A stretch of DNA of 64,000 nt from Candidatus Omnitrophota bacterium (GTDB lineage Bacteria; Omnitrophota; Gorgyraeia; Duberdicusellales; 4484-171): positions 1,536 to 65,535 of the forward strand of contig JBAWWL010000007.1 in assembly GCA_037146775.1 (NCBI GenBank). The letters run 5' to 3'. Each line of letters begins with the position of its first letter. Within the stretch, counting starts at the first letter, position 1. The position numbers and the translations under genes are program-made. The notes beneath the pieces are model-generated. The model saw nothing but the letters and a program-made list of their open reading frames with translations. It had not been told where the DNA came from and searched no databases. Positions 9,075-54,266 of this stretch are shown in pieces.

Positions 9075-9191
9075 AAAAACAAGTTTGATTTGGCATAAAA
9101 TAGTGTCAGCAGAAATTTTTATAGACACTGGAAATTAAATAGTGAGGAGCCAGGTTTTTAAACCAAAACCTTGGATGGTCGGTGAATTAAG

Positions 9192-12325: not shown

Positions 12326-12357
12326 GCTTACTATTTTCGAGGGGGGGTGGTATAATT
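12326..12357 (+). promoter_or_regulatory. Sigma70-type promoter, extended -10, copy 3 of 3
   Basis: TGCTTACTATTTTCGAGGGGGGGTGGTATAATTAAAAAAAC, about 140 nt upstream of the 12494 ORF. Confidence 0.45.
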
Positions 12358-12493
12358 AAAAAAACATAACACTATGAAGAAAAAACTTTTTTTACTATGT
12401 GTATGGTTTAACTGAATACTTGTCTCTTATGGCATTATTTTTTCTGCCTTTGTTACTGTTTGATTGTGTGAGTTTTAGGCAAAGAGAAGTTGT

Positions 12494-15640: not shown

Positions 15641-18613
15641 ATGTGGCAGGGTGAGTTAGAAAAAATCAACGACTATAAATTCAGGATTCCCAGAAGCTAT
15701 AAACCGGGAATGCGCGTGGACGGTATTATTTACGCGAACGAAAAGCTTTTGGTTGATATTAAACGCGATAAAGCGCCGGAGCAGGTGGCAAACGTTGCGT
15801 TTTTACCCGGTATAGTCAAATATTCCTTGGCAATGCCTGATATCCATTGGGGTTACGGTTTTTGTTTAACAAGGGACGCCAAAATATTAACTAATTTTGG
15901 TTTCTATAAAACAATCTGTGATTTTGAAAAAGATTGGTCTACGTGTTATCTCAAGAGCATGGATTTAAATTCGCAGAAACCAACAGAGACCCCCATTCTA
16001 AAATTTATAAAGTTAAAACCAAAAACATTATTTAAAGTAACTACTAAGACAGGTTATGAAATCAAAGCTACAGGAGATCATCCATTCCTGACGCCTTTCG
16101 GTATGAAGCCGATACAGCAATTGACCGCTCAAGATAAAGTAGCACTTTTTCCTTTTCGGGGAATTCAGTACGAACATGCTTCTACCAAAACCATCATTAC
16201 GGAGAAAGATGTTAAAAAAACTTTATTAAGATTGGCAAGGCGGCCAAATACTCCAAAATTCGAAATAATATTAGAGAAAATAAGAATGCGTAAACTTATA
16301 CCATTAACTTATGATCACCCAAGTTTGCCTTATATTTTAAAAATAATGGGTTTTATTTTCGGCGACGGTTCAATGAATTTCATCGGGAAAAAAGGAGATG
16401 GCATAATACATTTTTCGGGCAAGCCCGAAGATTTAGAGAACGTAAGAAAGGATATAGAAAAAATTGGCTATACGCCAAGTCCTATTCATTATCAGAAGTC
16501 AAAACTTGCTATCACTGGTAAAAATTATGATTCCTATTCGTTTGTGGTTAATGCATCTAGTTTGGTGGTTCTTTTGGAGACGTTAGGGGTTCCGCGCGGT
16601 ACGAAGGTGACTCAGTCATATAGGGTCCCCGAATGGATTTTGAAATCACCACTTTGGCAGAAACGTTTATTTTTAGCCTCTCTTTTTGGGTGTGAATTAA
16701 GAATGCCTCATAGACGATTGGGGAGGAGAGGCTATTTTAACGCCCCTGTTTTTCCTATGGCAAAAAGCGAAGAACTCATAAAGAATGGAAAAGAATTTTT
16801 AAATGATCTTGAGCGGCTTTTGAAAGAATTTGGAGTAAGAACAATCGGCATCAACATGAGAAGAAGGCATATTAGTAGAAGGGGGATAGTCACAAGGTCG
16901 TTGGAATTGTTAATTTCTCCGTCGCCGGAAAATCTTTTTAATCTATGGGGCAAGATTGGTTTTGAATATAATCTTAAAAGGTCTTTTGTATCAAATGTGG
17001 CGGTGCATTACCTAAAGTTGAAATTGAGGATATTGAAAGAGAAAGAAGAAGCAGTAAAAATAACTATCCCTAAATTGCTAAAAAATGGGTTAAGTTACCA
17101 AAAGATCGCTCTTCAATTGGCAGGAAATTCTCTAACCAAGAGGTTTATCATAGATATTTGTTGGAAGCTTAATAAAGGTAAAGTGGTTGTGCCGCGAATC
17201 CCTGCGAGTTTTCCTTTTTTTGAGAATCATCTCAGAGAAATTAGGAAAGGGCTTGGTGATAGTGGAATGCTTTGGGACGAAATTAAGACAATAGAAAGTA
17301 TTCCTTCCCAAGATTTTGTCTATGATTTTACCGTATCCCATCCGGATCATAATTTTATCGCAAATAATTTTGTTGTTTCGAACTGCATAGGTGGAGTTGC
17401 GGCAACCGATCCGCAAGATGGCGGCGTAATTTCTCCCGGAGGCGTGGGGTACGATATCAACTGTGGGGTGCGTCTGCTTAGAACCAATCTAAGCGTTGAA
17501 GATCTTAAAACTAAAGTAAATAAAATTGTAGATACTTTGTATAATGATATTCCTTCCGGCGTGGGCTCGACCGGTGAAATTAAGGTTTCTCATCAGGAAG
17601 AGAGGAAGTTACTTCTCGAAGGCGCAAGGTGGGCGGTTTTGCGTGGCTTAGGAGTCAAAGATGACCTGGAGTACTGTGAAGAATACGGAGCAATCGAGGG
17701 TGCGGATCCTGACAGTGTTTCTCGTCGGGCTTACGAGCGAGGCAAGGAGCAGGCCGGGACCTTAGGCAGTGGCAACCATTTTATCGAAGTGCAGGTTATT
17801 GAGGATATATACGATAAAGATGTAGCCCAGGTACTCGGATTAGACATCGGTCAGGTTACGGTGATGATCCATTCTGGTTCGCGCGGGTTGGGCTATCAGG
17901 TCTGTGACGATTATGCCCGGGAAATGATTGGATGTTTATCGAAATATTCTATAAATGTTCCTGATCCCCAATTGGCTTGCGCGCCCGTTAATAGTCCTGA
18001 AGCGAAAAATTATATCGGTGCAATGCGGGCTGCGGCAAATTATGCCTGGGCAAACAGGCAAGTGCTGATGCATTTAACCAGAGAAAGTTTTGGGCGAGTA
18101 TTTTCCAAGAGTTGGCAATCTTTGGGGATGGATTTGATCTATGATGTTGCGCATAATATCGCGAAATTTGAAAAACATATAGTAGATGGTAAAGAAAAGA
18201 TGCTTTGTATCCATCGTAAGGGCGCTACTCGTGCGTTCGGGCCGCAGCATCCGGAACTACCTGCACGATATAAAGCTATCGGCCAGCCGGTTATTATTCC
18301 CGGAGACATGGGCAGGGCATCGTATCTTTTGGTGGGGACCAAAAAAGCCGAAGAGGAAACATTTGCCAGTACTTGTCATGGTGCCGGTAGAGTTGCTTCG
18401 CGGCACCAAGCGTTGAAGACCATCGATTTAAATGATTTATTGCATGAGTTAAAAGCTAAGGGAATAGAGGTTAGGGCAACTAGTAAAAAAACCATTGTCG
18501 AAGAGGCTCCTGCGGTGTATAAGAATGTAGATGACGTGGTGGAGATAGTGCACAAGACAGGCCTGGCAAAGAAAGTCTGCAGGATGCGGCCGGTTTGTGT
18601 GGTGAAAGGCTAA
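15641..18613 (+). CDS. rtcB: RNA-splicing ligase RtcB containing a 507-aa intein
   Basis: N-extein ends MPDIHWGYGF. C-extein resumes CIGGVAATDPQDGGVISPGGVGYDINCGV and continues with RtcB motifs (GSGNHFIEVQ, HSGSRGLG, HRKGATRA, TCHGAGR). Exteins sum to about 483 aa, the normal RtcB size. Confidence 0.85.
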   Translation: MWQGELEKINDYKFRIPRSYKPGMRVDGIIYANEKLLVDIKRDKAPEQVANVAFLPGIVKYSLAMPDIHWGYGFCLTRDAKILTNFGFYKTICDFEKDWSTCYLKSMDLNSQKPTETPILKFIKLKPKTLFKVTTKTGYEIKATGDHPFLTPFGMKPIQQLTAQDKVALFPFRGIQYEHASTKTIITEKDVKKTLLRLARRPNTPKFEIILEKIRMRKLIPLTYDHPSLPYILKIMGFIFGDGSMNFIGKKGDGIIHFSGKPEDLENVRKDIEKIGYTPSPIHYQKSKLAITGKNYDSYSFVVNASSLVVLLETLGVPRGTKVTQSYRVPEWILKSPLWQKRLFLASLFGCELRMPHRRLGRRGYFNAPVFPMAKSEELIKNGKEFLNDLERLLKEFGVRTIGINMRRRHISRRGIVTRSLELLISPSPENLFNLWGKIGFEYNLKRSFVSNVAVHYLKLKLRILKEKEEAVKITIPKLLKNGLSYQKIALQLAGNSLTKRFIIDICWKLNKGKVVVPRIPASFPFFENHLREIRKGLGDSGMLWDEIKTIESIPSQDFVYDFTVSHPDHNFIANNFVVSNCIGGVAATDPQDGGVISPGGVGYDINCGVRLLRTNLSVEDLKTKVNKIVDTLYNDIPSGVGSTGEIKVSHQEERKLLLEGARWAVLRGLGVKDDLEYCEEYGAIEGADPDSVSRRAYERGKEQAGTLGSGNHFIEVQVIEDIYDKDVAQVLGLDIGQVTVMIHSGSRGLGYQVCDDYAREMIGCLSKYSINVPDPQLACAPVNSPEAKNYIGAMRAAANYAWANRQVLMHLTRESFGRVFSKSWQSLGMDLIYDVAHNIAKFEKHIVDGKEKMLCIHRKGATRAFGPQHPELPARYKAIGQPVIIPGDMGRASYLLVGTKKAEEETFASTCHGAGRVASRHQALKTIDLNDLLHELKAKGIEVRATSKKTIVEEAPAVYKNVDDVVEIVHKTGLAKKVCRMRPVCVVKG
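15863..17383 (+). mobile_element. Intein with LAGLIDADG homing endonuclease, inserted in rtcB
   Basis: Starts with Cys (CLTRDAKILT), ends ...FVVSN followed by +1 Cys. Internal LAGLIDADG-type motifs IMGFIFGDGSM and LASLFGCE. 1521 nt, in frame. Confidence 0.75.
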
Positions 18614-25637: not shown

Positions 25638-25998
25638 TTTTGCTGGCACATTTGATTACTGTTGTTGACGCTGTGAGATAATTAAGTTATAATTGGAAAA
25701 TATTTTTTTGATAATTCGGTTTTTCTTACTTCAATATAGCTAAAAACACGCATGTTGGTGGGTAACTTTTATTAGCCAGTGTCTATAATGACGTGTTATA
25801 GATTTTTGTTATTGTTCATATCATATTTAATCTTTAATTTTTGATCTTTGATATTTGATTTTTAGTTCCCCGGTAGCTTCCGCCTCTCTGCCTTCGGCAG
25901 AGGGCGAGACCTCGCCACACGAAGGCGTGGCGGGCAATTGGTTTCTAGGTACAACCTTTGTTTAGATAGAAACCATTAGATGTTCTTTTAAAATTTAT

Positions 25999-26295
25999 TC
26001 CCCGGTAGCTCAATTGGTAGAGCGGCTGGCTGTGCGAAGAAGTGCAGCTTTCCCGAGAAATCGGGATTGAAAAAGCGGGCTAATTCAGGGAACCCCTATT
26101 CCATGTAAATGGAAGGGCAATCCTGAGCTAAGTGGCTAGAGCGAAAGCTTTAGCCTAAATGTGCAGAGACTATATACCCGCTGCCTAACCCCGTATCGTA
26201 TACGGGTATGGTGATGAGATAGTCCAGGCCTTAAAGTAATTTAAGGGATACCTGTAACCAGTAGGTCGTAGGTTCGAGCCCTACCCGGGGAGCCA
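25999..26295 (+). tRNA. tRNA (read as Asn, anticodon GTT) split by a 221-nt group I intron; exons 25999-26033 and 26255-26295
   Basis: Exon 1 TCCCCGG-TA-GCTC-AATTGGTA-GAGC-G-GCTGG-CTGT. Exon 2 TAA-CCAGT-AGGTC-GTAGG-TTCGAGC-CCTAC-CCGGGGA-G-CCA. Spliced length 76 nt with a 7-nt loop CTGTTAA. Confidence 0.7.
26034..26254 (+). ncRNA. Group I self-splicing intron in the tRNA anticodon loop
   Basis: 5' exon ends in U and pairs with an internal guide GCAGC (26044-26048), giving a U-G wobble at the splice site. The intron ends in G. R-like element GTGCAGAGACTATA (26161-26174) and S-like element ATGAGATAGTCC (26214-26226) match the group I consensus R/S sequences. Confidence 0.65.
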
Positions 26296-27894
26296 TATTG
26301 ACGTCTGACAGCGGATTGCTCCGTCAGACGCCGCAGTATCAAATAGCCCTATTTGGGGATACTTCCCGAATAGGGCTATTTTTATGCCCTCGGGGCCCAA
26401 GACGGCCTTTTTGAGGAGGAGCTTGAAGATCTCTTTCTTCTGGTAGGGATGCAGGGTGTCGAAAAGGCTGTTAAACTTGTCCACAGCCATCATCACGTCC
26501 TCTTTGCGGATCGCTTCACGCTGTATATCGTTTATCTGCGCGTCGAGTTCCACCATCCCGGCCTCAGTGTCTTTTCTTTCCTTGGCCAATTCATCGAGTT
26601 TTTCACGCAGGAATATGCTGTTGTCGGTTGTAGCAAGGGTTGTCCACTTGATCATGATGCCGTCAGCTTGCATTTTTATGTCTTCGAGCTTTCGCTTGAG
26701 CGCGTCACGTTGCGCGTTAAGCTGTGGCAGTTCTTTTTGAAGCTCAGCGTTTGCATCGCGCACCATTGTTTCAATAACGTCCTCTTGGGTTACGAGTCCT
26801 TTTATGTGGTCAATTACCACGCCTTCAATTTCATCGGCTGACATTTTGAATCTGCATGCTTTGCAGTGATAGTAAAAATATTTATTCCCTTTGTGGCCGG
26901 TTCCGCAGGTTCCTTCCATAGGCTTTCCGCAGTTTTCGCATAAGAGCAATCCGCTATTCAAAATATAAACATGTTTTATTGGCGCAGTCTCATTGTGTTT
27001 TGTCGCGGTGTTTTTGGCTAAAAGATTTTGAGTTTTGTAAAAAGTTTCTTCATCGATAATCGGTTCCCATACGGCAGGAACGGTGCGGTATCTGTTGTTT
27101 TCTGGAAGCTTGTCCTGATCCTGCGTTTTCCACTTTTTATTGATTTCCTTTTTACCGATATAAGCGAGATTCACAAGCATCTGTTTCATTGATGACCGGC
27201 CGAATGTTTGCGGTGATCGTGTTTTGTTGCGCCGGGATGTATATCCTTTGGTTCTGTAGCCGTTGGTATTTAACGCCCTGCCGGTTTCAATAAGCGATCC
27301 GCATTCCAGATATTTCCTGAAGGCGAACTGGATCGCGGCTTTTTCCTGTTCGCTTACTTCGAGGTAGCCTTTTTTGTTTGAATTCAAGTTATAGCCTAGT
27401 AAATGCCCGCCATTCCAGAGTCCGCGCTCTGCCCGAGCGATGGTAGCGTCTTTATTGCGCTCGGAGGTTTGCGTCCGTTCAAATTCTGCGAGCGCCATCA
27501 TGATCGTAATGAAAAGCTTGCCTTGCGAGGACGTGGTGTCGTAGTTTTGCTTTAAGCAGACGAACTCGACGTTGTATTTTGTGAGTATCTCGAAGAAGTT
27601 GAGAAAGTCTTTAACGGATCGGCTTATGCGGTCGAGGGCGGTGCAAATAACCGTGTCAACTTTACCGGATTCCATATCGGCAAAAAGTTGTGCGAATTCC
27701 GAGCTTCGAAATGAATCTTTACCCGATACGCCTTTAAGAATATACCGGCCGGTTTCAAGCCAGCTTTCACCGCAGGCTGTGTTCTTATATTCGATGTGGG
27801 CCTGTAACCGCTGGAGCTGGTTTGTGAGTGATCCTTCCGGGTTTCGGGCTTGTTTGTCGGTGCTGACTCTTATAACGAATCCACATTTTTTCAT
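26281..27894 (-). CDS. Large serine recombinase (island 1 integrase)
   Basis: N-terminal resolvase domain with catalytic Ser in CGFVIRVSTDKQ. Recombinase domain, zinc ribbon (CENCGKPMEGTCGTGHKGNKYFYYHCKAC) and coiled coil. The last 5 codons overlap the tRNA 3' end. Confidence 0.85.
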   Translation of the reverse strand: MKKCGFVIRVSTDKQARNPEGSLTNQLQRLQAHIEYKNTACGESWLETGRYILKGVSGKDSFRSSEFAQLFADMESGKVDTVICTALDRISRSVKDFLNFFEILTKYNVEFVCLKQNYDTTSSQGKLFITIMMALAEFERTQTSERNKDATIARAERGLWNGGHLLGYNLNSNKKGYLEVSEQEKAAIQFAFRKYLECGSLIETGRALNTNGYRTKGYTSRRNKTRSPQTFGRSSMKQMLVNLAYIGKKEINKKWKTQDQDKLPENNRYRTVPAVWEPIIDEETFYKTQNLLAKNTATKHNETAPIKHVYILNSGLLLCENCGKPMEGTCGTGHKGNKYFYYHCKACRFKMSADEIEGVVIDHIKGLVTQEDVIETMVRDANAELQKELPQLNAQRDALKRKLEDIKMQADGIMIKWTTLATTDNSIFLREKLDELAKERKDTEAGMVELDAQINDIQREAIRKEDVMMAVDKFNSLFDTLHPYQKKEIFKLLLKKAVLGPEGIKIALFGKYPQIGLFDTAASDGAIRCQTSIWLPG

Positions 27895-27949
27895 TCTTTC
27901 CTCCGTGTTATAGGTACAACAACACCCCTATAACAACAAGCGGTTCCAG

Positions 27950-28171
27950 TCAAGCTGAATCAATGCCTTGTGACGGCATATCGCGGTTTGCGATTTCGCG
28001 GGCATTGTCTATGGCTTGGCGGACTTTTTCATGTCGTTTAGGATCAACCCGCAATAATCCTTCTTTTTTAAGATAGGCGTATACGCCTTCCGCGAGGATC
28101 TTGGCGACCTTCCTTATCCGTTCGGCTTCGTCCGGGCTCTCAACGTATTCAACTTCAACTTTTAACGCCAT
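27950..28171 (-). CDS. Hypothetical small protein
   Basis: ORF only, adjacent to the recombinase. Confidence 0.3.
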   Translation of the reverse strand: MALKVEVEYVESPDEAERIRKVAKILAEGVYAYLKKEGLLRVDPKRHEKVRQAIDNAREIANRDMPSQGIDSA

Positions 28172-28264
28172 GCCTTAAGCCTCCTTAAGGCATATATACG
28201 GATTTTGATTACAGAATGTCGGAGGCGGTCATCACTGATACGTCAGTTATAGATTGGTAGTAAG

Positions 28265-28760
28265 TTTCGGCGTATTCTGATTTTGGGCTTGCAAGACACA
28301 CGCAAAACAAAGCGAAGGTGTCTCGCAGGCCCTCATCTTTTACGGCTTAGAACCTAAGTTAGCCCTATGTCGTAGCGCCGATGTCGGTTCGGGGATATTC
28401 TGATTCTGGGCTCGATTGAGACACCTGAAAAAAACGGCAAGGTGTCTTGATTGGGCCTTTTTATACCCCGCCGGTACATCCGTAATTATGGAGCTACTGG
28501 TTTCGGCGTATCCTGAATTTGAGCTCGTTTTCAAGACACCTGCAAAAAAACGCGGTGTCTTAAGGCGAGCTTTCTAATCACGGAGCCCTCCGTGATTTCC
28601 TAAGCCCTCAAACTGGCCTATTCTTTAGTTGGGCTTGCTTCAAGACACCGCAAAAAAAACAGCGCGGTGTCTTAGGCGGGCCCTAATTCATTTATACGGC
28701 AAAAGCCGTAGAAGTGTCGGCCTCAAAGGCACCTCGCACAACAGGAGGTGTCTTATGGGG
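28265..28760 (+). repeat. Array of 4-5 direct repeats (period about 90-125 bp), each with a hairpin AAGACACC-N10-14-GGTGTCTT
   Basis: Units begin near 28265, 28385, 28501, 28625 and 28715. The conserved 5' part is TTCGGCGTATYCTGAWTYTGGGCT. The last hairpin overlaps the RBS and start of the 28755 gene. Confidence 0.6.
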
Positions 28761-29327
28761 CTTACGTATGGGTGTGTATTTGAAGGTTGGGAGATCGCGG
28801 TTGCCAAGAAGCTGGTGGATCAGTTCAAGCGCAAGTGGAAGTGTTTTTCCAAGGATGATTTCGATGATCTTTTACAGGAATGTCTGAGCCATTGGTATTT
28901 CGTGAGGAAGAAATACGAAGTATCAAAAGGCGCGTCAAAATCAACGTATATGTCGAACGTCATTAAAAATAAGTTGATGGACATGGTCGAGGAGCGCATG
29001 GCGGAGAAGCGCAAGACTGATCAGATGAGTGTTTCGCTGTATGAGCCTATCAGCGAAGACGACGAAACCGCCATCATCGACAAAATCGCGGACAAATTGA
29101 CAGAGGATTTGACGGAAGTCTTTCGAGTAATCGGCTTAAAGCATGACCTTGCCAGTGCTTTGGAAAAACTTACGCCTCAGCAAAAAGAGCTTTGCCGTTT
29201 GCTTGAGGAAGGCGTGAGTATTAAGGAGGCCGGACAGAAGCTCAATATTCACCGAAGCACTGTTTATGAAGAAATAAAGCGTATCGCAGAGGCGTTCGAA
29301 GGAAACGGCTTAAAAAATTATCTATAA
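28755..29327 (+). CDS. Sigma-70-family-like / HTH transcription regulator (region 4-type HTH at C-terminus)
   Basis: C-terminal ELCRLLEEGVSIKEAGQKLNIHRSTVYEEIKRI helix-turn-helix. AGGAGG RBS before the ATG at 28755; the listed upstream extension to 28629 runs through the repeat array and is unlikely. Confidence 0.5.
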   Translation: MGLTYGCVFEGWEIAVAKKLVDQFKRKWKCFSKDDFDDLLQECLSHWYFVRKKYEVSKGASKSTYMSNVIKNKLMDMVEERMAEKRKTDQMSVSLYEPISEDDETAIIDKIADKLTEDLTEVFRVIGLKHDLASALEKLTPQQKELCRLLEEGVSIKEAGQKLNIHRSTVYEEIKRIAEAFEGNGLKNYL

Positions 29328-29382
29328 ATCACCCGACACTTTGGCGTGGGAGTCCGTATATATGCCTTAGGAGGAAAGAAAA

Positions 29383-29619
29383 GTGCAGGACACAGGTGAA
29401 ATATTTGAAGCAGGCAATATCTACTTAGCGGCCTATCTCGTTTACCGTGGATTTTCTATTCGCGGGCTTACCGGTTACGGCAGACAGAAACGCCTCCAGT
29501 TTGATAACTCCCCGGAAATTCAAAAGACCAGCAAAGAATTCTTCGAGAATTCCGATGCATCGCGTCTTTTCGATTGTTACCGCAAAACCAAAGACTATTT
29601 ATTTCAAAACGGAGTGTGA
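29383..29619 (+). CDS. Small hypothetical protein (possibly DUF5659-like, mobile-element associated)
   Basis: IFEAGNIYLAAYLVYRGFSI resembles small proteins seen next to phage or plasmid primases. Low-certainty recollection. Confidence 0.3.
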   Translation: MQDTGEIFEAGNIYLAAYLVYRGFSIRGLTGYGRQKRLQFDNSPEIQKTSKEFFENSDASRLFDCYRKTKDYLFQNGV

Positions 29620-29621
29620 TC

Positions 29622-31967
29622 ATGCAATTTGAGGAAAGAAAAGACAAGAAATGGATCATTGAAAATATCCCGCAGGAATTAAAAGCACTTCCCAACTGGG
29701 TCGGGTTTAAATTCATCCCGCAAGAAGGCAAAAAGCCCAAGAAAGACCCGATCAATGTCGCGACCGGCGGCCATGCTAAGTCTAACGATTCGAAAACATG
29801 GCGCCCATTTGATGAGGTTATCGCGAAAGCCGAAACGCTGAATTTTGACGCAATAGGCATTGCTGTTGTCGAGCCGTATATCGTTTGCGATATTGATCAT
29901 TCTGTTCGCGAAAAAATTATTGCACCGCTCGCAAAGAAAATAATATCCGCTTTTCCCAGTTACACCGAATATTCACCGAGTAAGACCGGCATTCATATTG
30001 TTGGCAAAGGCAAAATCCCAAGAGATCGTAAATTTACCACGCTCGACGTTGAGATGTATTCCGGCAGTAGGTTCTTTACTTTCACCGGCGACCTTGTGCC
30101 GGAGTGTCCTCAAGATATACGCGAAGTGGATATTTCGAAGCTCTACGGTGAGCTCGAGCAGATGGATGATGCGAATAAGCAGATCGACGCACTCTTCAAA
30201 CGCATAAAAAAGAGTAATGACGACACGTTTTTCGCGCTCTATGAAGGCAAGTGGCAGGATTCATATCCTTCTCAATCCGAGGCAGACCTTGCTCTGTGCA
30301 ATAAACTCGCCTTCTGGACGGGCAAGGATCCGGCGTTCATGGATTTGCTTTTCCGCAGGTCGGGCCTCATGCGCCCCAAGTGGGATGAAAAACATTTTAG
30401 CGACGGACGGACTTACGGCCAGTCGCTGATTGAGAAAGCCGTTGAGAGTTGCGCCAACTTCTATCACTCGTCAGGAAATGAATTTAAACACAAGCCCACT
30501 CAAGGCGAAATCATTACCTGCGACTGCGAGGAGAACAGTAAAGACTTTTTCCGCGATCAACATGGCAATTCAATAATCGTGCTTCCAGTCAGTGACCACC
30601 TCGAAGTGTGCCCTACAACGAGCACGAGTTTCAGGAATTGGACAGCTACCCGCTATCGTGAGAAATACGGTGTGCCACCCAAGACAGACGCAATCAATCA
30701 GGCGAAAGTTCAGATTGAGGCGCGGTGCGCGGCTTCCCGTCAGGTTGAATTATTTAATCGTGTCGGCTGGCATGATAACAAGATTTTCTTCGACTTGACC
30801 ACTGCAGATCATAAAGGCGTTGAGATCGACAGAATTGGTTGGAGAGTTGTTGGTATTCCTCCAATGTTCAGGCGTTATCAACATCAGGCTGAACAGGTCG
30901 TGCCGGTAGCTGGATGCGACCCGAAAGATTTCCTGCGGTTCTGCAATATCTCGATAGATGATCGTTGCCTTTTTATGGCGCTTATCGCTTCGTATTTTAT
31001 TCCAAATATTCCGCACGTTATTTTAAGCCAGACCGGCGAACAGGGATCTGGTAAATCGAACAACTCCCGCAAGATTAAAAGTTTGGTTGATCCCTCGCGT
31101 GTCACGCTCATCTCAAGCCCGAAAGATCTGGAACACGCGCAAATGATCGGCGAGAAACACTGGCTTATCTCATTTGATAATATCTCCAGAATTCCCGATT
31201 GGCTAAGTGACTACTATTGCCGTGGCGTGACAGGCGAAGGTGATATGAAACGAAGCCTGTACACCAATGACGATGAGTTTATCCGTTCATATCGCAGGTG
31301 TTTTGTTTTAAACGGTATCGGCTCATCCATGTATCGGCCTGATTTGCTTGATCGCTCGATCATCTTTGAAATTCCCATACTCAAAAGCTCCCGGCCGGAG
31401 AACGCCATGAATGAAGAATGGCACAAATCTCTACCGGGCATCTTAGGCGGGTTCTTCACTGTGGTTTCAAAAGCCATGAGTCGTGTGTCGCAAGTCAGCG
31501 GCCATGAGAAATTCCGCATGTCTGACTTCGCCCAGTGGGGCGGTGCTCTTGCCGAGGCTCTCGGGTATTCGCAGGATGAGTTTTTTAAGAAGTATCAGGA
31601 GTCCGTTGATCGCAAATGGCAGGACACCGCGGAGGACAGCGTATTTGCCAAAAGGATTACTGAATTCTTGGAGAGGCATGGCGGTTACTGGTCGGGTTCG
31701 CCCGCGGAACTTCTTTCTGAAATAAAGCCGGAAGATGATGAGAAAGGAATCCCCAAGACGGCCAAGTGGCTGTCGAATGAGCTGGTCAGGATCGCGCCGG
31801 TTATGCGTAATGTGGGCATTGACATCATCAAGGATAAACGCGAAGGCGGTACCGGCAGGCGCATTTTTGTTCTCAAGAAATGTGAGCGAAAAACTTGTGA
31901 GGATGGTGTGAGGATCGGGCAATTTTGTGAGGATGGCCATGAGGTGGACAGTGACCGGCCATTCTGA
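29622..31967 (+). CDS. Bifunctional primase-polymerase (prim-pol) with P4/D5-type helicase (SF3-like) domain
   Basis: N-terminal prim-pol motifs (FDAIGIAVVEPYIVCDIDH; D-x-D and His). Walker A SQTGEQGSGKSNNS. C-terminal CEDG repeats encoded by the iterons. GGAG RBS before the ATG at 29622. Confidence 0.7.
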   Translation: MQFEERKDKKWIIENIPQELKALPNWVGFKFIPQEGKKPKKDPINVATGGHAKSNDSKTWRPFDEVIAKAETLNFDAIGIAVVEPYIVCDIDHSVREKIIAPLAKKIISAFPSYTEYSPSKTGIHIVGKGKIPRDRKFTTLDVEMYSGSRFFTFTGDLVPECPQDIREVDISKLYGELEQMDDANKQIDALFKRIKKSNDDTFFALYEGKWQDSYPSQSEADLALCNKLAFWTGKDPAFMDLLFRRSGLMRPKWDEKHFSDGRTYGQSLIEKAVESCANFYHSSGNEFKHKPTQGEIITCDCEENSKDFFRDQHGNSIIVLPVSDHLEVCPTTSTSFRNWTATRYREKYGVPPKTDAINQAKVQIEARCAASRQVELFNRVGWHDNKIFFDLTTADHKGVEIDRIGWRVVGIPPMFRRYQHQAEQVVPVAGCDPKDFLRFCNISIDDRCLFMALIASYFIPNIPHVILSQTGEQGSGKSNNSRKIKSLVDPSRVTLISSPKDLEHAQMIGEKHWLISFDNISRIPDWLSDYYCRGVTGEGDMKRSLYTNDDEFIRSYRRCFVLNGIGSSMYRPDLLDRSIIFEIPILKSSRPENAMNEEWHKSLPGILGGFFTVVSKAMSRVSQVSGHEKFRMSDFAQWGGALAEALGYSQDEFFKKYQESVDRKWQDTAEDSVFAKRITEFLERHGGYWSGSPAELLSEIKPEDDEKGIPKTAKWLSNELVRIAPVMRNVGIDIIKDKREGGTGRRIFVLKKCERKTCEDGVRIGQFCEDGHEVDSDRPF

Positions 31968-32190
31968 TTTTGTGAGGATTGAGATGTATCCTCACGCAAA
32001 CTCACAGGCATCCTCACAGGGTCAACACGCCTGTTCACAAGTAGTTACACCAATCTGTGAGGATTGTGAGGCTATTTTCTTTAAAGTAGTAAGAAAGAAA
32101 AATATATAGGAAAGCTCATAAAAACTCACACGCAAATACATGAGGTTTAAGGATAGGGATTTTAGCCTCACGAACCTCACAAGCTCACAA
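31879..32190 (+). repeat. Iteron cluster: at least 6 direct TGTGAGGAT repeats plus about 4 inverted copies (ATCCTCACA / CCTCAC); putative origin of replication
   Basis: Direct copies at about 31894, 31905, 31924, 31969, 32054, 32063. Inverted copies at about 31988, 32009, 32167, 32176. The cluster spans the last 90 nt of the primase gene and the following 220 nt. Confidence 0.6.
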
Positions 32191-32273
32191 AAGGAGGTGA
32201 TGTCTGGGCAGGTGTAGAAGCGGAAAAACAATTGGCAATGTAATTAACATTTAACTAAATGAAAGGAAAAACC

Positions 32274-32948
32274 ATGAAACTGAATTTTTTGAACGCGTTA
32301 AACGGTAAGGTCAATCACGAAGAGATTGCCGAGCAGATCATCGCTCTGGAAATCAAACAAAAGGAATGCGAGAACGAGCGGAACCTCTCAAAGATTCTCT
32401 GCAAGGAAGTCCGGGGCAAGACCCTGTGCGGGGAAAAGATAAGCCCCGACGTCATTAAAAGCGCGGATAAAGGCTACGAGGAGGCATTGCTTAATCTCGA
32501 GATCGTTACCGAAGGCCTCGAGGAGCTCGGGAAAAAGCTCACTGTTGAGCTTGAGGCATACAGGCAAGACGAGGCAAAACGGATCGCTAATATGCGCAGT
32601 AAGCTTGAACAGGAGCGCGAGAAGGTCATGCGGGAGTTCGCCAAGGCCAAAGGAAGGCTGTTAGGGCTGGCTTTCGGTATTTACGGCCACCCGGCGGTTG
32701 CACGCAGGCACCTTGAGGTTTTACGGAGTTTTACCTATACCAATACGGATCAGTTTTCCGAGGAGTTCGAGGCTGAGCAAAACAAAACAGTCGCCGAGTT
32801 AAAACGTCCGACCTTTGCCGATCTTGATGAGGAGTGTCAGCAGAAAGACCGCTGGCTATCTTCTTTTAATATCGATGAAGAGTATGCCCGCATTCTCAAG
32901 AAGTATCGGGATCAGCATGGGGTTGAAGGTCAGCCGGTTGAGTCGTAG
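32274..32948 (+). CDS. Hypothetical coiled-coil protein
   Basis: Charged heptad-like sequence. AAGGA RBS before the ATG at 32274. Confidence 0.4.
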   Translation: MKLNFLNALNGKVNHEEIAEQIIALEIKQKECENERNLSKILCKEVRGKTLCGEKISPDVIKSADKGYEEALLNLEIVTEGLEELGKKLTVELEAYRQDEAKRIANMRSKLEQEREKVMREFAKAKGRLLGLAFGIYGHPAVARRHLEVLRSFTYTNTDQFSEEFEAEQNKTVAELKRPTFADLDEECQQKDRWLSSFNIDEEYARILKKYRDQHGVEGQPVES

Positions 32949-33380
32949 AGGCAAAGGACTGCGGAGGAGCCTGCGCGGGGTTTTCCTTTTTGTTTCCCTT
33001 CGTGCTGGCTTTGCCGGAGAAGCGCGTCCGGCAGGGGCGGTCTTGTTACCCGACCTCTTCGCACGCCCCCTTTTTTACGGGTCCTTGGAAGGGGGTGTCG
33101 GCCGAGGGTCGGGCGAGGCGCGGGCTTTGAGTGATGTCAGTTTTTGAAAATGTCATGTCGTGGTCGTATAGGCATATTTCGGGGTGTCCGGTTGGTAATG
33201 GCTCAAAAAGGCGTTTACCGTCGGGAAAACGGCTCAATTTTGGCTCAAAATCGGTTCAAAAACGATGTCCTACGAGTCGGACATATACGACATTTTCGAT
33301 GTCCGAATGTCCTATTGGTAGCGACAGGAAAATCAACTCGCATAAAACAAGGCGCGCTTCCATTTTTAAAAGAATAATAC

Positions 33381-33409
33381 TTGATTTTTTGTCTCTTGTG
33401 CAATATAAT
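33381..33409 (+). promoter_or_regulatory. Sigma70 promoter (TTGATT-N17-TATAAT) for the XRE gene, preceded by ATGTCCGA/TCGGACAT operator-like palindromes (33270-33320)
   Basis: Hexamers and the 17-nt spacer read directly. An ATG 8 nt downstream of the -10 suggests a leaderless mRNA. Confidence 0.4.
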
Positions 33410-33416
33410 GCAAGAT

Positions 33417-33647
33417 ATGCAAGATAGATCGAAGAATACAATCTCGCCGGAGCAAAATCCTATGGATATCGTCAAACAATTAGAGCTTTACCGTTTGGAG
33501 AACAGAATTACTCAAGATGAGCTTGCTAAGGAGATCGGCGTCAATTTCTCCACAGTGAGCCGGTGGCTCAATGGTAAAACCACTCCGAATAAGATTCAGC
33601 AGTATCATATAGAAAAATTATTAAAGCAAAAGGCAACGAGAAAATAA
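33417..33647 (+). CDS. XRE-family helix-turn-helix transcriptional regulator
   Basis: ITQDELAKEIGVNFSTVSRWLNGKTTPN is the classic XRE HTH. The start is uncertain (33417 leaderless or 33462); the listed TTG at 33381 overlaps the promoter. Confidence 0.6.
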   Translation: MQDRSKNTISPEQNPMDIVKQLELYRLENRITQDELAKEIGVNFSTVSRWLNGKTTPNKIQQYHIEKLLKQKATRK

Positions 33648-33654
33648 AGTATTT

Positions 33655-36600
33655 ATGAAAAACGATTCGTCAAAAATATCAAAGATGAAATTGCAGATCG
33701 AAGAGTGGAAGAAAAGACTCATAGATCTAACGCGAAGGAATCAGCTTGTTTTTTTTAATTCCACGAAAAAAAGCACTATTGAAATTAAACATCCTTCTTT
33801 CGAAGATGTGTTCAGTTCGCTATTCAATGAAAAGAAATTTAGTGTTTGGTTGCCACCAAAGGATGATGAAAATAATAAATTAAGTGACAGCGAAAAAGAG
33901 GATCTTTTTAATAGTAGCCCAGCGGACGATGATGAGTATAATTTAAGAGATAATGAGTTAGCTTTCGTTTTATCTGAGCGGAAGGAAACTGAACGTAGAA
34001 TAAAGAGCATTTATAGAAAAGCGTCCTCAGATTACCTTGAAAAAGGCATAAGAACGTCTATAGTTGCTTTTGGTTTACTATGGTGGAAAGAAAAGGATTC
34101 TCACGAAGAAGTATGCTCTCCTTTGTTGTTGTATTCAGTCGAGATATTGCAGGCCACTCCTGAAGAACCATATAAAATCCTTGGATCAGAAGAAGATGTT
34201 ATTTTAAATCCCGCAATTCAAGTCAAGATGAATTGGGATTTCAAAATTCAATTGCCCGAACCGGATTTTGATTCTGATGATTGGAATCTTGATGCATATT
34301 TATCTTCAATAGAAAAACTTGGCAAGCGGGACGGTTGGCGCGTTGAAAAGAGGATGTTTCTTGGAAACTTTTCTTTTCATAAGATAGCGATGTATCAGGA
34401 TCTTGCAGTTAATGCTTCAATAATGGAGCAACATCTGATAATAAAAGGGCTCGCAGAAGGATTTTTAGATGAGCGGCTTTGCGTAAATGATATCCCAAAT
34501 GAGAAAGAGCTCGATAATAATGCTGATTCGAAGAGGATGCTTTACATATTAGATGCAGATAGTAGTCAGTCGAAGGCCATTGAGTCTTCGATATGTGGGC
34601 ATAGCTTTGTCTTGAAAGGGCCTCCGGGTACAGGAAAAAGTCAAACTATTAGCAATATAATTGCCGAGTTTCTAGAGGAAGGTAAAACGGTTTTATTTGT
34701 CAGCGAAAAAATGGCGGCCTTGGAGGTTGTTTTTAATCGATTGAAACAGGCTCGATTAACCGATTATTGCCTTGAACTTCACAGCCACAAAGCCAATAAA
34801 AAAGAGGTTGTCAAAGAACTTAAGAGATGCCTAGACGAACAGCCGATCGCTAACAAGAAAGTTACTTCTCTTGAATTAGAAAAACTTCGGGCTCTTCGTA
34901 CTAGATTAAATGAGTATGTTCTTGAGCTACATTTTGTTAGAGATCCACTTGGGGAGAGCATGTATCAAGTGTTTGGAAAATTATCAAGGCTAGATAGAAT
35001 GACGCTTATTCCCATAAAACTTCCCGACGATAGTTTTTCCCCAATTTCATTTCAATCGATGAAAGATTTAATTTCAAGACTTCGGAATTGCTTCATTGTT
35101 ATTGAGGAGGGGCGAGTTTTCCCTTGGCGAGGATTTAAACCGCAAAGATTTACACATAGTTTACGAGCAGATCTTATTGATAAGCTTACAAAAATAAGGT
35201 CACAAATAAGTAAGTTGGATGGGCTTTTTAAGGATCATTCATCTATTTTAGGATTAGACTCTCCAGTTAGTCTTTCTGGATGTAAATGGATGCTTCAGAT
35301 GAGCAGAAAGTTAACCAATAATCCATCCCCGGTCAAGCTGTGGTTTTCCGAAATCGAGAGAAAGCAATTGTTATTAGAGGCACAGAAATATTGCGATTTA
35401 GACGAGCGTTACCAGCTATTAAGGAATGAAGTTCTTGGTGATTTTAACGAAACTTTCTTTGGCCTGACTGTTAGTATAAAAAATGATTTTCAATCAGTTT
35501 GGGGCGACCTAAGCGCCCTAATATCGAAAGATGCGGGCATGGACGCTCAGCTACTTGTTGTTCGAAAAGAACTAGAAGCATTTTCGGATAGCTCTAGGCA
35601 ATATTTAGAAGGTTATATACGGGATGTTCGAGAGATTAAAGAAGCTTTTGGCTTAACGATTCCAGAGAATTATTCGATAGAGCGTATCAAGCAATTAACA
35701 GAACTAGTTTCCCTCCTATTCGTAGAGAATAAGCCTGAGAAGGCGTGGTTTGACCCTGTGGCCCTCAACAGAGCGGTCAATATGATCAAGAAGCTCCGAG
35801 TTTATTGTGAAAAATACTCCCAGCTCACGACTGAAATAGCCTCAAAATATTACACTGGATTCCTAACGCTAGACACCGAACGGTTAATAAAAAACTTTGA
35901 GGGTAGATATAAAAGTATATTCAGATTTTTTATTCCCGGATATTATTTCGATATTAGTCGTATCAAGAAAATCAGCAAAACAAAAAGTTTTCTCGCCACG
36001 ATTGTCACCGATTTAAGGAACGTTAGAGAACTAAAAGAGCTTGAGAACACTTTTAATGTCGAGAGTCCGTCCATAAAAGAAGCCCTTGGGAATTATTTTA
36101 ATGGGTTTGATACAAATCTTGAAGCCACAGAGTTTGCAATTGAGACGGCGGATAAGATCATCCGTCTTGTTGGCGAGCTACCTTTACCCGTAGGCGTCTT
36201 AAATGCCGGGGCTTTTGGTGGAATTGCGCATCCAAATTTGAAAATCATTTCTAGCCGGCTTCATAATACATTAACTGTGTGGTTACGTGAACTTGAGAAA
36301 TTCGGAATAATTGTTTCAGACAAGTGTTTGATGGTAACAAAATTACCCCTTGTCGAAAGTTCCGTTGTTTCACTAAATCAGTATTTTTATGACTTATCTC
36401 TCGCTCTAAAGAATTTAAATATAGTTGTTAATGCAATTGAACAACCTAAACGAGTGGGGCATTTTAATTCATGTTCGGAAATATTTGAAAAATTGGATAG
36501 TCTTGCCCAAATCCGAGATTTTGAGAAAGATATTCAAGGAAGATCAGAAAAACTAAGTCAATCATTTGGTAATAAATTTCTTGGTCTACAAACAAATTGG

Positions 36601-39258: not shown

Positions 39259-39411
39259 TTGAAATTATTGGCGCCAGAAGCTGATTGCTCGAATAATATG
39301 GTTAATCAAAGCGCGGTTGCAGAATTTGAGAAACAAATAAATGATTTGGTTTATGGATACTATGGTTTAACGAAAAAAAATAGACTTACTGGAAAACTCG
39401 GCTGGAGATAA

Positions 39412-40029
39412 ATGAATCAAAGAGACATTAAAGAGTTATACTTCATAACCCCGATTGATAATATTCCATCGATATTCCAACATGGGATTATGTCGCATAA
39501 TAAAATTAGGGCAAGCAAGTTATCTCATAAGAGCGTTGCTCATGGAGAAGTCCAGAAGCGCCGGGAGGACAAAGTCATTCCCGGAGGAAAACGCAAGTTG
39601 CATAATTATGTGAATCTGTACTTTAACCCTCGAAATTCAATGATGTATAGTCGTAAAAACTTACATGAAGATCTTTGCGTTTTGGCTGTACATGCGGATG
39701 TTTTAACTCATCAAGGTATTATTATCGCGGATGGAAATGCTTCGAGCAACTATACTCGTTTTTTTGAAACATCCGAAGGCATTAAATCTTTGGATAAAGA
39801 TTCCGTTTTTACTGAAAACTGGTGGGACCCGGATCATTACGAGATGTGTCGAAAACGAAGTGCGGCTTGTGCCGAAGCCTTATTCCCCGATCAATTGCCA
39901 CCATCCAAAATTACAGGGATATATGTATCGAGCGAAGAGGCTCATGGGAAGGTGGCGTCAATTATTGCCGATATTCGTATCAATATACCAGTTATTATAA
40001 ATGGCAAAATGTTTTTTAAGGAGGCTTGA
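39412..40029 (+). CDS. darT: DarT-like DNA ADP-ribosyltransferase toxin (DUF4433)
   Basis: N-terminal ELYFITPIDNIPSIFQHGIMS matches the DarT/DUF4433 signature (YHFTHI-NL-SIL-GL). About 205 aa. Immediately followed by a macrodomain gene. Confidence 0.65.
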   Translation: MNQRDIKELYFITPIDNIPSIFQHGIMSHNKIRASKLSHKSVAHGEVQKRREDKVIPGGKRKLHNYVNLYFNPRNSMMYSRKNLHEDLCVLAVHADVLTHQGIIIADGNASSNYTRFFETSEGIKSLDKDSVFTENWWDPDHYEMCRKRSAACAEALFPDQLPPSKITGIYVSSEEAHGKVASIIADIRINIPVIINGKMFFKEA

Positions 40030-40030
40030 A

Positions 40031-41152
40031 ATGGTAAAGAATATTTTAATCGGGGATATTTTTAATTCGGAAACTCAGACATTGGTAAACACTGTCAATT
40101 GCGTCGGTATCATGGGTAAAGGAATCGCGGCTGAATTCAAGAAACGCTATCCCGAGATGTTTGATGATTATGTGGCACGTTGCCAAAAAGGCGAAGTCAA
40201 GCCGGGCGTTCCTTACCTATTCAAAATGCCTTCGCTTTTTGCTCCGCAGGTGATTAATTTTCCAACAAAAAGCGATTGGCGAGCGGCATCGCGGGTCGAG
40301 GATATAGAAAAGGGTCTCAAAATACTTATTTCGAAATATAAAGAATGGGGTATTGAGTCAATAGCGGTTCCCCCGTTAGGCTGTGGCAATGGTCAATTAC
40401 TTTGGGAAACCGTTGGCCCTCTGATTTACAAGTATCTCTCGAAGCTGGATATTTTGGTCAAAATTTATGCTCCATATGGCACACCGCCTGCACAGTTGAC
40501 CGAGAAGTTTCTCTCGCAAGAGTATAATTTGCGGGATGCTAAGTCAGGCGAGGCAATCCTTCAGAAACTGGAACCCGCTTGGGTCGCGTTGATTGAGATA
40601 GTTCATCGCATTGAAAAGCAGGCGTATCATATGCCTGTCGGCAGGACTATTTTTCAAAAGATTGCCTATGTTGCCACTGCATTAGGTATCCCTACCGGTT
40701 TGGCGCATGTTCGTGGATCATATGGGCCTTATTGCAAAGAGCTAAATGATGTTAAAAAACGATTATCGAATGATGGATTATTGCAGGAAGAAAAAAGCGG
40801 GTCTATGTTTCAGGTTATTCCGGGCCTCGCGTATGAGAAGAATCGTTTGAAATATCAGGATACTTTTCAAAAATGGGATAATATGATCGACAAGACGGTT
40901 GATCTTTTTCTGCGATTAGATACTAATAAGGCCGAAATTGTGGCAACCGTTCTTTTCGTTGAGCGCGAAATGAATAAAAACAATATGTCTGAGGATGATA
41001 TTTTGCAAGAAGTGATGAAGTGGAAACAGAAGCGCATTCCTCCAATTAATAAGAAAGAGGTCGCTCAAGCTATCCGCAATCTTGGTGTGTTGAAATGGTT
41101 TACGCTGAAGCCTTCGGCAGACTTGCCGGTTGAGGAAGATTGGGCAAATTAA
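40031..41152 (+). CDS. darG: DarG-like macrodomain antitoxin (N-terminal macro domain + C-terminal DarT-binding region)
   Basis: LVNTVNCVGIMGKGIAAEFKKRYPEMF matches the DarG/ADP-ribose-processing macro domain. AAGGAGG RBS inside the 3' end of darT. The listed start at 40001 is unlikely. Confidence 0.7.
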   Translation: MVKNILIGDIFNSETQTLVNTVNCVGIMGKGIAAEFKKRYPEMFDDYVARCQKGEVKPGVPYLFKMPSLFAPQVINFPTKSDWRAASRVEDIEKGLKILISKYKEWGIESIAVPPLGCGNGQLLWETVGPLIYKYLSKLDILVKIYAPYGTPPAQLTEKFLSQEYNLRDAKSGEAILQKLEPAWVALIEIVHRIEKQAYHMPVGRTIFQKIAYVATALGIPTGLAHVRGSYGPYCKELNDVKKRLSNDGLLQEEKSGSMFQVIPGLAYEKNRLKYQDTFQKWDNMIDKTVDLFLRLDTNKAEIVATVLFVEREMNKNNMSEDDILQEVMKWKQKRIPPINKKEVAQAIRNLGVLKWFTLKPSADLPVEEDWAN

Positions 41153-41158
41153 AAAATT

Positions 41159-41587
41159 ATGGATATAAAAAACGATAACCATGACTTTTTACTCAAAGAG
41201 ATTGATCTAATTCAAGATGTGATCAGGCGAATGGCTCATAATTCATTCTTGATCAAAGGATGGGCTGTTACTTTGATCGTTGGTTCTTTATTATTAAAAG
41301 GGACGATGCTTGAAGTTTATATTGCGGTGATTCCGCTGATTTCTTTTTGGATTCTGGACGCTTATTTTCTTAGGCAAGAACGTCTATATCGGAAACTTTA
41401 CGATTGGGTTATTAATAATCGGCACAAAACAAGCGAATATCTTTTTGATTTAAGCACGTCGCGATTCAAGGGCGCGGTGCAGTCAATTCCTCGAATTATG
41501 TTTTCGATTACTTTGGGCATCTTTTATGGTTCGATTGCAGTTTTATTGGCTATTTATATTGTCATGCTTTTGAAATTTCATGCATAA
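41159..41587 (+). CDS. Small 3-TM membrane protein, possible membrane effector
   Basis: Three hydrophobic helices; no catalytic motif. 7-nt gap from darG and 13-nt gap to the TIR gene. Confidence 0.45.
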   Translation: MDIKNDNHDFLLKEIDLIQDVIRRMAHNSFLIKGWAVTLIVGSLLLKGTMLEVYIAVIPLISFWILDAYFLRQERLYRKLYDWVINNRHKTSEYLFDLSTSRFKGAVQSIPRIMFSITLGIFYGSIAVLLAIYIVMLLKFHA

Positions 41588-41599
41588 GGAATTGATATT

Positions 41600-42181: not shown

Positions 42182-42251
42182 ACCCTATGGCGTTGTGGTT
42201 CGAGCTGTAGGCTAACTTGGCGATACTCTCTAAAACTTGGAGGTTTGAACA

Positions 42252-42497: not shown

Positions 42498-42561
42498 GCG
42501 CAGATTACGCTATATTTAGAGCGAGACTTTTTTATAGCCATTATTAAGTTAGGAGTTATTC

Positions 42562-53321: not shown

Positions 53322-53335
53322 CTTAAGAAATTATA

Positions 53336-54265: not shown

Positions 54266-54266
54266 A

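Follow-up and report, generated by a model that had tools for sequence, protein, structure and literature searches.

The window, i.e., the whole 64,000-nt stretch of DNA analysed here, carries an Omnitrophota-related tRNA-Asn(GUU) gene whose anticodon loop is cut at U35/U36 by a group I intron; with a probability of roughly 0.9, the gene is functional and the intron self-splicing. This reading draws on the anatomy of the locus, its homology to described introns, covariation, an exact intron-less allele and the presence/absence pattern among relatives. The gene is composed as follows:

25999–26295, + strand: split tRNA-Asn(GUU) gene (5' exon, intron and 3' exon) with encoded CCA, from ARAGORN -i and the spliced cloverleaf
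25999–26033, + strand: 5' exon, tRNA positions 1–35, 35 nt, TCCCCGGTAGCTCAATTGGTAGAGCGGCTGGCTGT, 3'-terminal GGCTGT
26034–26254, + strand: group I intron, 221 nt, starting GCGAAG and ending ACCTG, without an ORF
26255–26295, + strand: 3' exon, tRNA positions 36–76, 41 nt, TAACCAGTAGGTCGTAGGTTCGAGCCCTACCCGGGGAGCCA, first bases U36-A37-A38

The 3' exon reads TAACCAG...GGGGAGCCA, and U35, the last base of the 5' exon, is U-1 of the 5' splice site. An earlier reading of the letters alone (the sequence-only reading) had proposed a tRNA gene split by a 221-nt group I intron, with tRNA-Asn(GUU) as the host that folds into a cloverleaf once the 221 nt are removed, and had named the Rfam Intron_gpI model, intron-aware tRNA detection and P1–P9 folding as checks. 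Both searches bear it out. With introns allowed, ARAGORN returned tRNA-Asn(gtt) i(36,221) at 25999–26295, and the 76-mer spliced in silico folds as a canonical cloverleaf, in which G73 is the discriminator and the CCA is encoded. G73 is an Asn identity element. With the GUU anticodon formed upon splicing and an Asn-type body, the host is tRNA-Asn. The Rfam model RF00028 (Intron_gpI) matched at 26024–26246 over its whole length (positions 1–253 of 253) and scored 82.6 bits (E = 1.7e-19; gathering score, 50); the presence of a group I intron is therefore real and far beyond chance. The split gene was missed by default ARAGORN and by the Rfam tRNA model. In the 64-kb window, default ARAGORN found tRNA-Lys and tRNA-Ser only, and no second tRNA-Asn was found.

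The secondary structure was drawn by hand as P1–P9, and pairs were counted in 24 homologues that had been aligned with plain MAFFT, without fitting to the structure. The core comprises the following elements:

26028–26049, + strand: P1, exon GGCUGU (26028–26033) with the internal guide GCAGCU (26044–26049), including the wobble U35•G26044
26052–26065, + strand: P2 hairpin CCCGA-GAAA-UCGGG, 5 of 5 pairs changed on both sides, 99% paired
26075–26079, + strand: 5' strand of P3, GCGGG, partner CCCGC at 26177–26181, pseudoknot with P7
26082–26125, + strand: J3/4-P4-P5-P5a-P4' domain, P4 being 26086–26090 with 26121–26125
26094–26117, + strand: P5/P5a with GUAA loop, reproduced by the MFE fold
26127–26162, + strand: P6/P6a, P6a at 26134–26155 with GAAA loop, P6 base pairs 100% paired
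26166–26173, + strand: 5' strand of P7, G-(A bulge)-GACUAU, partner AUAGUCC at 26219–26225
26184–26211, + strand: P8 hairpin, basal pair covarying (CG in 16, UA in 8), in the MFE fold
26226–26253, + strand: P9.0 (26226–26228 with 26251–26253) and P9 (26229–26246, GUAA loop)

In this 24-sequence alignment, 82.5% of the cells are paired versus 70.1% in shuffles, and the covariation score of 0.331 (0.118 in shuffles) was matched by 0 of 500 shuffles. When the 3' partners were shifted by 1–3 columns, pairing fell to 34–50%. The alignment has 62 invariant columns, every one of which is present in the window intron. Independently, the MFE fold gives P1, P2, P3, P4, P5, P6a, P8, and P9. Thus, the P1–P9 folding named beforehand could be carried out, with P2, P3, P4, P9.0, and P9 showing covariation across the 24 homologues.

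The wobble pair predicted from the letters between the 5' splice site and a GCAGC guide, together with a terminal G, is indeed present as U35•G26044 and G26254. The four inner pairs of P1, the U•G among them, are invariant in 24/24 homologues, and the GCAGC guide occurs in 76/76 extracted introns (75 loci among the matches listed plus the window). Likewise, the predicted R-like (GTGCAGAGACTATA, 26161–26174) and S-like (ATGAGATAGTCC, 26214–26225) elements were located, which together make P7. The P7 strands AGAGACUA and AUAGUCC with the bulged A are invariant in 24/24, and the 5' strand presumably carries the guanosine-binding G-C pair. Covariation was seen in 3/5 pairs of P3 and 2/5 pairs of P4 (both 100% paired), in 2/3 pairs of P9.0 (96% paired), and in 6/7 pairs of P9 (89% paired). 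In the MFE fold, P6a forms a 9-bp hairpin, and the metagenome contig L250 shows compensatory differences in P6/P6a. The distal parts of P5, P6, and P8 are variable in length and poorly aligned by MAFFT (51–59% paired); in the window, these parts form clean hairpins capped by GNRA loops, as judged mainly from thermodynamic folding and from comparison with L250. The terminal G (omega-G, 26254) lies directly 5' of UAACC. No convincing P10 pairing between the 3' exon and the guide could be drawn, so exon alignment would have to use the anticodon stem, as it does in the Anabaena pre-tRNA according to Zaug et al. 1993 as cited in PMC13011429. A search for a homing endonuclease reading frame found no ORF of at least 60 aa within 26034–26254.

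A splicing model can be proposed for this gene. Upstream of it lies a promoter-like element:

25665–25693, + strand: promoter-like TTGACG-17-TATAAT, 11/12 match

Similar TTGACG...TATAAT boxes precede the tRNA-Asn gene in L243, L244, L248, L250, and L253 as well. From this conserved box, the pre-tRNA would probably be transcribed with a long structured leader, and the intron would fold into its P1–P9 core with the P3/P7 pseudoknot. The GCAGC guide would pair with C32-U33-G34-U35 and the last bases of the anticodon stem, placing U35 in the U•G wobble. The first attack, after U35, would come from an external guanosine docked in P7, and the terminal G, positioned by P9.0, would next take the same guanosine site. 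Finally, the free 3'-OH of U35 would attack after the terminal G, which would ligate CUGU to UAACC and give back the loop CUGUUAA. The guide of this intron lineage matches the CUGU that is common to tRNAs with GUN anticodons. We infer catalysis by analogy with the homologous Asn and Asp introns of Patescibacteria, for which self-splicing has been demonstrated (PMC13011429).

To date, the four classical host types of bacterial tRNA introns have been expanded to 21 (Williams 2020, bioRxiv 10.1101/2020.01.27.920355), one of which is Asn.4Ug, as cited by Nakagawa et al. (PMC13011429). In Patescibacteria, 15 tRNA-Asn introns at 35/36 have been described, with precise self-splicing in vitro (Nakagawa et al. 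2026, mSystems, PMC13011429). A survey of 4,934 complete genomes in the same work turned up 28 introns at this position, of which Patescibacteria account for 19 and five further phyla for the remainder. Omnitrophota does not appear in its list of phyla for 35/36, and our literature search found no paper joining Omnitrophota with tRNA group I introns. The window intron is a member of this already described Asn 35/36 lineage (Asn.4Ug), with which it shares the host tRNA, the insertion point, U-1, the terminal G, the GCAGC guide, and direct sequence homology (about 76–80% identity by blastn). It also resembles these introns in being overlooked by standard tRNA finders and in belonging to a class mostly without endonuclease genes. 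The host tRNA is therefore not new. The sequence-only reading had regarded tRNA-Asn as an unusual host, a claim that is withdrawn because introns at Asn 35/36 have been on record since a 2020 catalogue and their self-splicing was demonstrated in 2026. The window differs from the published Asn.4Ug set in its Omnitrophota-like host and from most Asn 35/36 relatives in having no P7.1/P7.2. What remains of interest is modest, namely a compact variant, an Omnitrophota host, exact intron-less alleles, and a decayed exon copy described below; a recently described class, reported as enriched in Patescibacteria, is now extended to Omnitrophota, and the knowledge of how such introns work is unchanged.

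The compact form deserves a closer comparison. Subgroup IA introns reportedly have extra hairpins, P7.1/P7.2, between P7 and the 3' strand of P3; these subgroup IA hairpins are absent from the window intron, which reads AGAGACUAUA-UA-CCCGC from P7 to the 3' strand of P3 with no insertion. In 19 of the 24 aligned relatives, about 35–45 extra nucleotides at this point form two small hairpins, P7.1/P7.2 (for example, UCCCGAAAGGGA and GGCCGAAAGGUC). The spacer between the P7 strands is 47 nt in the window versus 59–105 nt in most relatives. Introns without P7.1/P7.2 are those of the window, L216, L135, L200, L155, L243, L250, and a few others. The presence of the hairpins in most relatives agrees with the published assignment of 25 of the 28 introns at 35/36 to subgroup IA (Nakagawa et al. 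2026, PMC13011429).

The architecture of the window intron is compatible with subgroup IC3, since P2 is present and neither P5abc nor P7.1/P7.2 is found. Classical IC3 introns lie in tRNA-Leu(UAA) of Anabaena/Nostoc at 34/35, and in tRNA-Ile(CAU) of Azoarcus and tRNA-Arg(CCU) of Agrobacterium at 36/37. Like them, the window intron is small (about 200–250 nt), sits in the anticodon loop without an ORF, forms P1 from anticodon-loop bases, and has a P1–P9 core with GNRA peripheral loops and without P5abc or P7.1/P7.2. Unlike them, it occupies another host tRNA and another insertion position, and its nearest sequence relatives are the P7.1/P7.2-bearing Asn introns rather than those of tRNA-Leu, -Ile, or -Arg. 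By architecture, the introns without P7.1/P7.2 look like compact, IC3-like derivatives; the nearest sequence relatives of the window intron are IA-like. Nested among hairpin-bearing relatives, the compact form would offer a route by which an IA-like intron shrinks to an IC3-like architecture.

Close relatives both with and without the intron were found. JGI metagenome contigs were scanned with an exon pattern for the 5' half of the tRNA, which gave seven contigs; a pattern specific for P5 of the window had no match in the JGI metagenomes. Four relatives have exons identical to those of the window:

L248: intron absent, exons identical, neighbouring response-regulator gene with 81% DNA identity to that of the window
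L253: intron absent, exons identical
L250: intron present, exons identical
L243: intron present, exons identical

In L253 and L248, the uninterrupted tRNA-Asn is identical at 76/76 positions to exon 1 plus exon 2 of the window, with the junction GGCTGT/TAACCAG and nothing added or lost. These alleles fix the splice junction, and the insertion between positions 35 and 36 that had been proposed from the letters stands. Two further Omnitrophota contigs, L244 and L245, have an intron-less tRNA-Asn at the orthologous dnaX-recR position, 88% identical to the spliced product. The nearest relative of the window intron is that of the metagenome contig L250 (about 87–90% identical). The window and L243 have exons that match at 76/76 positions and introns that share 153 of 278 aligned columns, which indicates that selection on the tRNA is strong and that the intron core is retained. 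With exact intron-less alleles and a patchy presence among close relatives, the locus is a natural system for the study of intron gain and loss. The response-regulator protein encoded beside the gene had an exact match on one short contig, which stops short of the tRNA, and a contig from run SRR12676968 carries the neighbouring genes. At the locus of the seryl-tRNA synthetase homologue P0003, synteny is not kept. The seryl-tRNA synthetase of the window is 78–89% identical to proteins named Candidatus Omnitrophota or Omnitrophica.

Upstream of the gene, a partial copy of the 5' exon precedes a structured region:

25866–25998, + strand: 'ghost' 5' exon and structured leader, fold z = -3.4

The ghost is an exact copy of the first 12–13 nt of the tRNA at 25866–25878, 132 nt upstream of the gene. 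Two GC-rich hairpins come next, then a D-loop-like CAATTGGT (25935–25942) and a third hairpin; a permissive Rfam search of the region (25640–26400) revealed no credible family. Such a ghost could be a scar of cassette mobility or the product of a tandem duplication followed by decay, in a sample that is small and not phylogenetically independent. The first of these possibilities has a stronger form, in which the intron is actively mobile and arrived recently in a cassette that recombined through homology to the tRNA exons, leaving the ghost as its scar. We consider this unlikely, although several observations speak for it. L248 and L253 are intron-less despite identical exons, and presence varies among close relatives. 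Analogous ghosts with unrelated spacers occur in the intron-bearing L243 and L250, so that all three intron-bearing Omnitrophota lineages, the window included, have one, versus none of the three intron-less ones (L244, L248, and L253). Among the 76 intron-bearing loci (listed matches plus the window), fragments of the 5' exon are found upstream of the gene in 11 and fragments of the 3' exon downstream of it in 13; in the reverse placement, a 3'-exon fragment was seen upstream once and a 5'-exon fragment downstream twice. L166 and L236 have a small free-standing GIY-YIG gene between the ghost and the tRNA gene.

Against recent mobility, there is no nuclease gene in or beside the intron of the window, and the sequences between ghost and gene are unrelated in the window and L250, though their introns are about 87–90% identical. 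Moreover, the three intron-bearing lineages may be one clade, in which case the association with ghosts may reflect a single event. Tandem duplication and subsequent decay explains the ghost exons equally well, and precise intron loss could give the same presence/absence pattern. A more specific proposal, which we hold to be somewhat more doubtful still, would read the ghost as the footprint of endonuclease-less movement: a cassette of spacer, 5' exon, and intron, sometimes with a GIY-YIG gene, would be copied by break repair into an intron-less tRNA-Asn, the exons being the sole homology. If true, this cassette copying would amount to 'collaborative homing' in a bacterial tRNA form. In a weaker variant, the ghost exon and hairpins might act in the pre-tRNA leader, e.g., as a decoy for the guide sequence. 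For the resident self-splicing intron that we favor, the compact copy, which has neither P7.1/P7.2 nor a homing endonuclease gene, would therefore have been inherited mostly vertically, with sporadic gain and loss among close relatives.

The gene might also be a decaying or redundant copy, i.e., a pseudogene or a gene with a non-splicing intron, with another tRNA-Asn serving the cell. Such a copy would be in keeping with an intron without an endonuclease gene, with a tRNA census that covers the 64-kb window, and with the degenerate partial gene copy just upstream, which shows that the locus has been rearranged. Yet, all columns invariant in the 24 homologues are kept and the core helices are intact. 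The exons are identical to those of both intron-bearing and intron-less relatives, and the gene occupies the orthologous dnaX-recR-tRNA-Asn position, at which relatives retain the tRNA-Asn gene seen on their contigs. In Patescibacteria, intron-bearing genes accounted for the tRNA-Asn genes that standard tools had missed in complete genomes (PMC13011429). Collectively, the evidence to hand argues against a pseudogene, and decay appears very improbable. We infer that the window gene is the cell's working tRNA-Asn. Without intron-aware annotation, the genome would seem to have no tRNA-Asn and its completeness would be scored lower.

The distribution of Asn 35/36 introns was surveyed by scanning species-representative genomes for a 5' exon ending in CTGT, followed by a non-T and then by the J3/4-P4 motif, which yielded at least 120 loci. 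For the 120 matches listed, ARAGORN called 61 as Asn(gtt) 35/36 and about 38, by mis-call, as Thr(tgt). A strict extraction rule (U-1, terminal G, UAA, perfect anticodon stem, and T-loop) retained at least 77 Asn-type loci among the 120 matches listed, including the window; after L202 was dropped for a doubtful 3' exon, 75 loci and the window remained.

The Thr calls raise the alternative that the window gene is a tRNA-Thr(UGU) with its intron at 33/34, a boundary that annotation tools frequently give for this intron family, that ARAGORN assigned not only to those about 38 of the 120 related loci among the matches listed but also to the close relatives L242 and L243, and which reflects a two-base ambiguity identical to that documented by Nakagawa et al. 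(PMC13011429). It is hardly credible and was rejected for the window gene, because the intron would then end in C (26252) instead of the terminal G and the splice site after U33 would be paired with A in P1 instead of in a U•G wobble; in addition, ARAGORN's own call for the window gene is Asn, the discriminator is G73, and intron-less genes equal to the Asn-type spliced product exist.

The tRNA-Asn genes with an intron at 35/36 number at least 75 in the species-representative genomes, under at least about 17 different taxon labels. By record title, at least 32 of the matches listed are Patescibacteria. Other titles listed are Planctomycetota, Nitrospirota, Omnitrophota, Binatia, delta- and gammaproteobacterial MAGs, Elusimicrobia, Stahlbacteria, Spirochaetia, Ignavibacteriota, Melainabacteria, Acidobacteriota, Actinomycetota, and others. 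This spread suggests that uncultured phyla harbour the class far more widely than the complete-genome survey indicated. In blastn comparisons with the split gene, L216 (Omnitrophota) and L135 (Planctomycetia) align over about 300 nt at 76% identity, and the Parcubacteria copy L178 aligns in two blocks at about 80%; no match was obtained against plasmids. The gene order dnaX-recR-tRNA-Asn(intron) also occurs in Omnitrophota, Planctomycetota, Nitrospirota, Rokubacteria, and other MAGs. In viral contigs, a generic group I core pattern coincided with an intron-containing tRNA called by ARAGORN at about ten of the 120 listed matches.

Quite apart from the intron, the tRNA-Asn gene very probably serves, at its 3' end, as the integration site of two tandem defence islands with large serine recombinases. 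The elements bearing on this are the following:

26281–27894, − strand: large serine recombinase of island 1, 537 aa, Pfam Resolvase + Recombinase + Zn_ribbon_recom
43965–43977, + strand: direct repeat CCCGGGGAGCCAT of the tRNA 3' end (26284–26296), 13 nt, at the island 1/island 2 junction
44290–45921, − strand: large serine recombinase of island 2, then a DUF2924 gene at 45891–46358

The sequence-only reading had described the tRNA as the attachment site of two tandem islands. The recombinases, the 13-nt repeat, and empty sites in relatives largely support this. A right end of island 2 could not be located, as there is no third copy of the repeat downstream of 43977 within the window; it may lie beyond the window or have escaped recognition. 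For island 1 (26296–43977), the recombinase, the far-end repeat, and the empty site are all present. In 100 shuffles of the window, the number of sites with at most two mismatches to the repeat never reached the observed three, both exact copies included. L250, L248, and L253 are empty sites, because a terminator directly follows the CCA; no homology to the downstream flanks of the relatives was found within the window.

The cargo of island 1 includes an NrS-1-type primase-polymerase, a DUF4011 helicase-nuclease, DarT with a macro-domain protein, and two TIR proteins; that of island 2 includes a PLD-SNF2 protein, an Eco57I-type methylase, and large helicases. The arrangement is like that of other serine-recombinase islands at tRNA 3' ends in that the recombinase adjoins the tRNA, a short repeat of the tRNA end marks the far junction, the cargo is defensive (DarT/macro, TIR/ThsB-like, and PLD-SNF2 with methylase), and relatives have empty sites. 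It is unlike them in that two islands stand in tandem and the first recombinase has its stop codon within the tRNA. Indeed, the last four codons and the stop of this recombinase are within the tRNA 3' end, and the same overlap is found in L243. Intron-bearing tRNA-Asn genes with a serine recombinase alongside were also seen in a Gemmatales MAG (L159), whose recombinase is 51% identical to that of island 2, and in another Omnitrophota MAG.

The region immediately 5' of the intron-bearing tRNA-Asn(GUU) gene (window 25866-25998) exactly repeats the gene's opening 12-13 nt, at a point 132 nt upstream of the true start. After this copy come GC-rich hairpins and a D-loop-like CAATTGGT. Because an exact copy of the tRNA start is succeeded by these elements, the segment looks, from its sequence, like a decayed "ghost" 5' exon of tRNA-Asn. 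Its predicted fold is unusually stable (z = -3.4), and a search of the segment against Rfam gave no match. Two relatives whose tRNA-Asn contains the intron, L243 and L250, have comparable ghosts; the relatives with an intron-less tRNA-Asn (L244, L248, and L253) lack them.

Exon fragments (for the 5' exon, exact matches of at least 10 nt) were also counted around the window's gene and 75 genome loci with tRNA-Asn introns kept among L122-L241, i.e., 76 loci among the matches listed. Upstream 5'-exon fragments occur at 11 of these 76 loci, and 13 of the 76 have downstream 3'-exon fragments at distances of 87-481 nt, mostly about 90-270 nt. The opposite layout is rare in this set, with a single upstream 3'-exon fragment and two downstream 5'-exon fragments.

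At two intron-bearing loci, L166 and L236, a small stand-alone ORF of 82-84 aa with a GIY-YIG domain (Pfam E values of about 1e-13 to 1e-16) lies between the ghost 5' exon and the true tRNA-Asn gene. A third locus, L129, has a 59-aa GIY-YIG ORF on the opposite strand, upstream of its intron-bearing tRNA-Asn. These ORFs may represent free-standing homing nucleases.

At the other end of the window's gene, the ORF of a large serine recombinase terminates within the tRNA-Asn gene (26281-26295), as does its counterpart in L243 (14451-14465). In both, the recombinase reading frame closes with codons that read as the reverse complement of CCCGGGGAGCCA and then a TAG, so that insertion at the end of the tRNA gene also fixes the recombinase C-terminus. 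The cargo of the two tandem islands 3' of the gene includes:

29574-31967, island 1: NrS-1-type primase-polymerase, 797 aa
33655-39258, island 1: 1867-aa protein with DUF4011, AAA_11/AAA_12 helicase, and MTES_1575 nuclease domains
39412-41152, island 1: DarT (ssDNA thymidine ADP-ribosyltransferase) gene, then a macro-domain gene
41600-43542, island 1 (right end): a pair of TIR-domain genes, one with a ThsB-like TIR and one with TIR_2
within 46867-62003, island 2: PLD-SNF2 helicase fusion, 1071 aa; Eco57I/TaqI-type N6 methylase, 1079 aa; DEAD/Helicase_C protein, 1746 aa

The DarT and macro-domain genes look like a DarTG toxin-antitoxin/defence pair. No ThsA-like partner for the TIR genes was identified. 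By domain content, the island 2 genes are reminiscent of a DISARM-like defence set.

Elsewhere, the window opens within a 23S rRNA gene, of which it includes the 3' 924 nt, and a 5S rRNA gene comes next (1-1156). An RtcB RNA ligase gene (15641-18613) encodes 990 aa with an intein, assigned from a Pfam Intein_splicing match on the identical gene of L001, whereas RtcB in relatives L242-L246 has 483 aa, lacks the intein, and adjoins an archease gene. Finally, a 42-nt motif with GGTGGTATAATT occurs in three intergenic copies (6807-6848, 9045-9086, and 12328-12369) and probably represents a shared promoter type in this organism.
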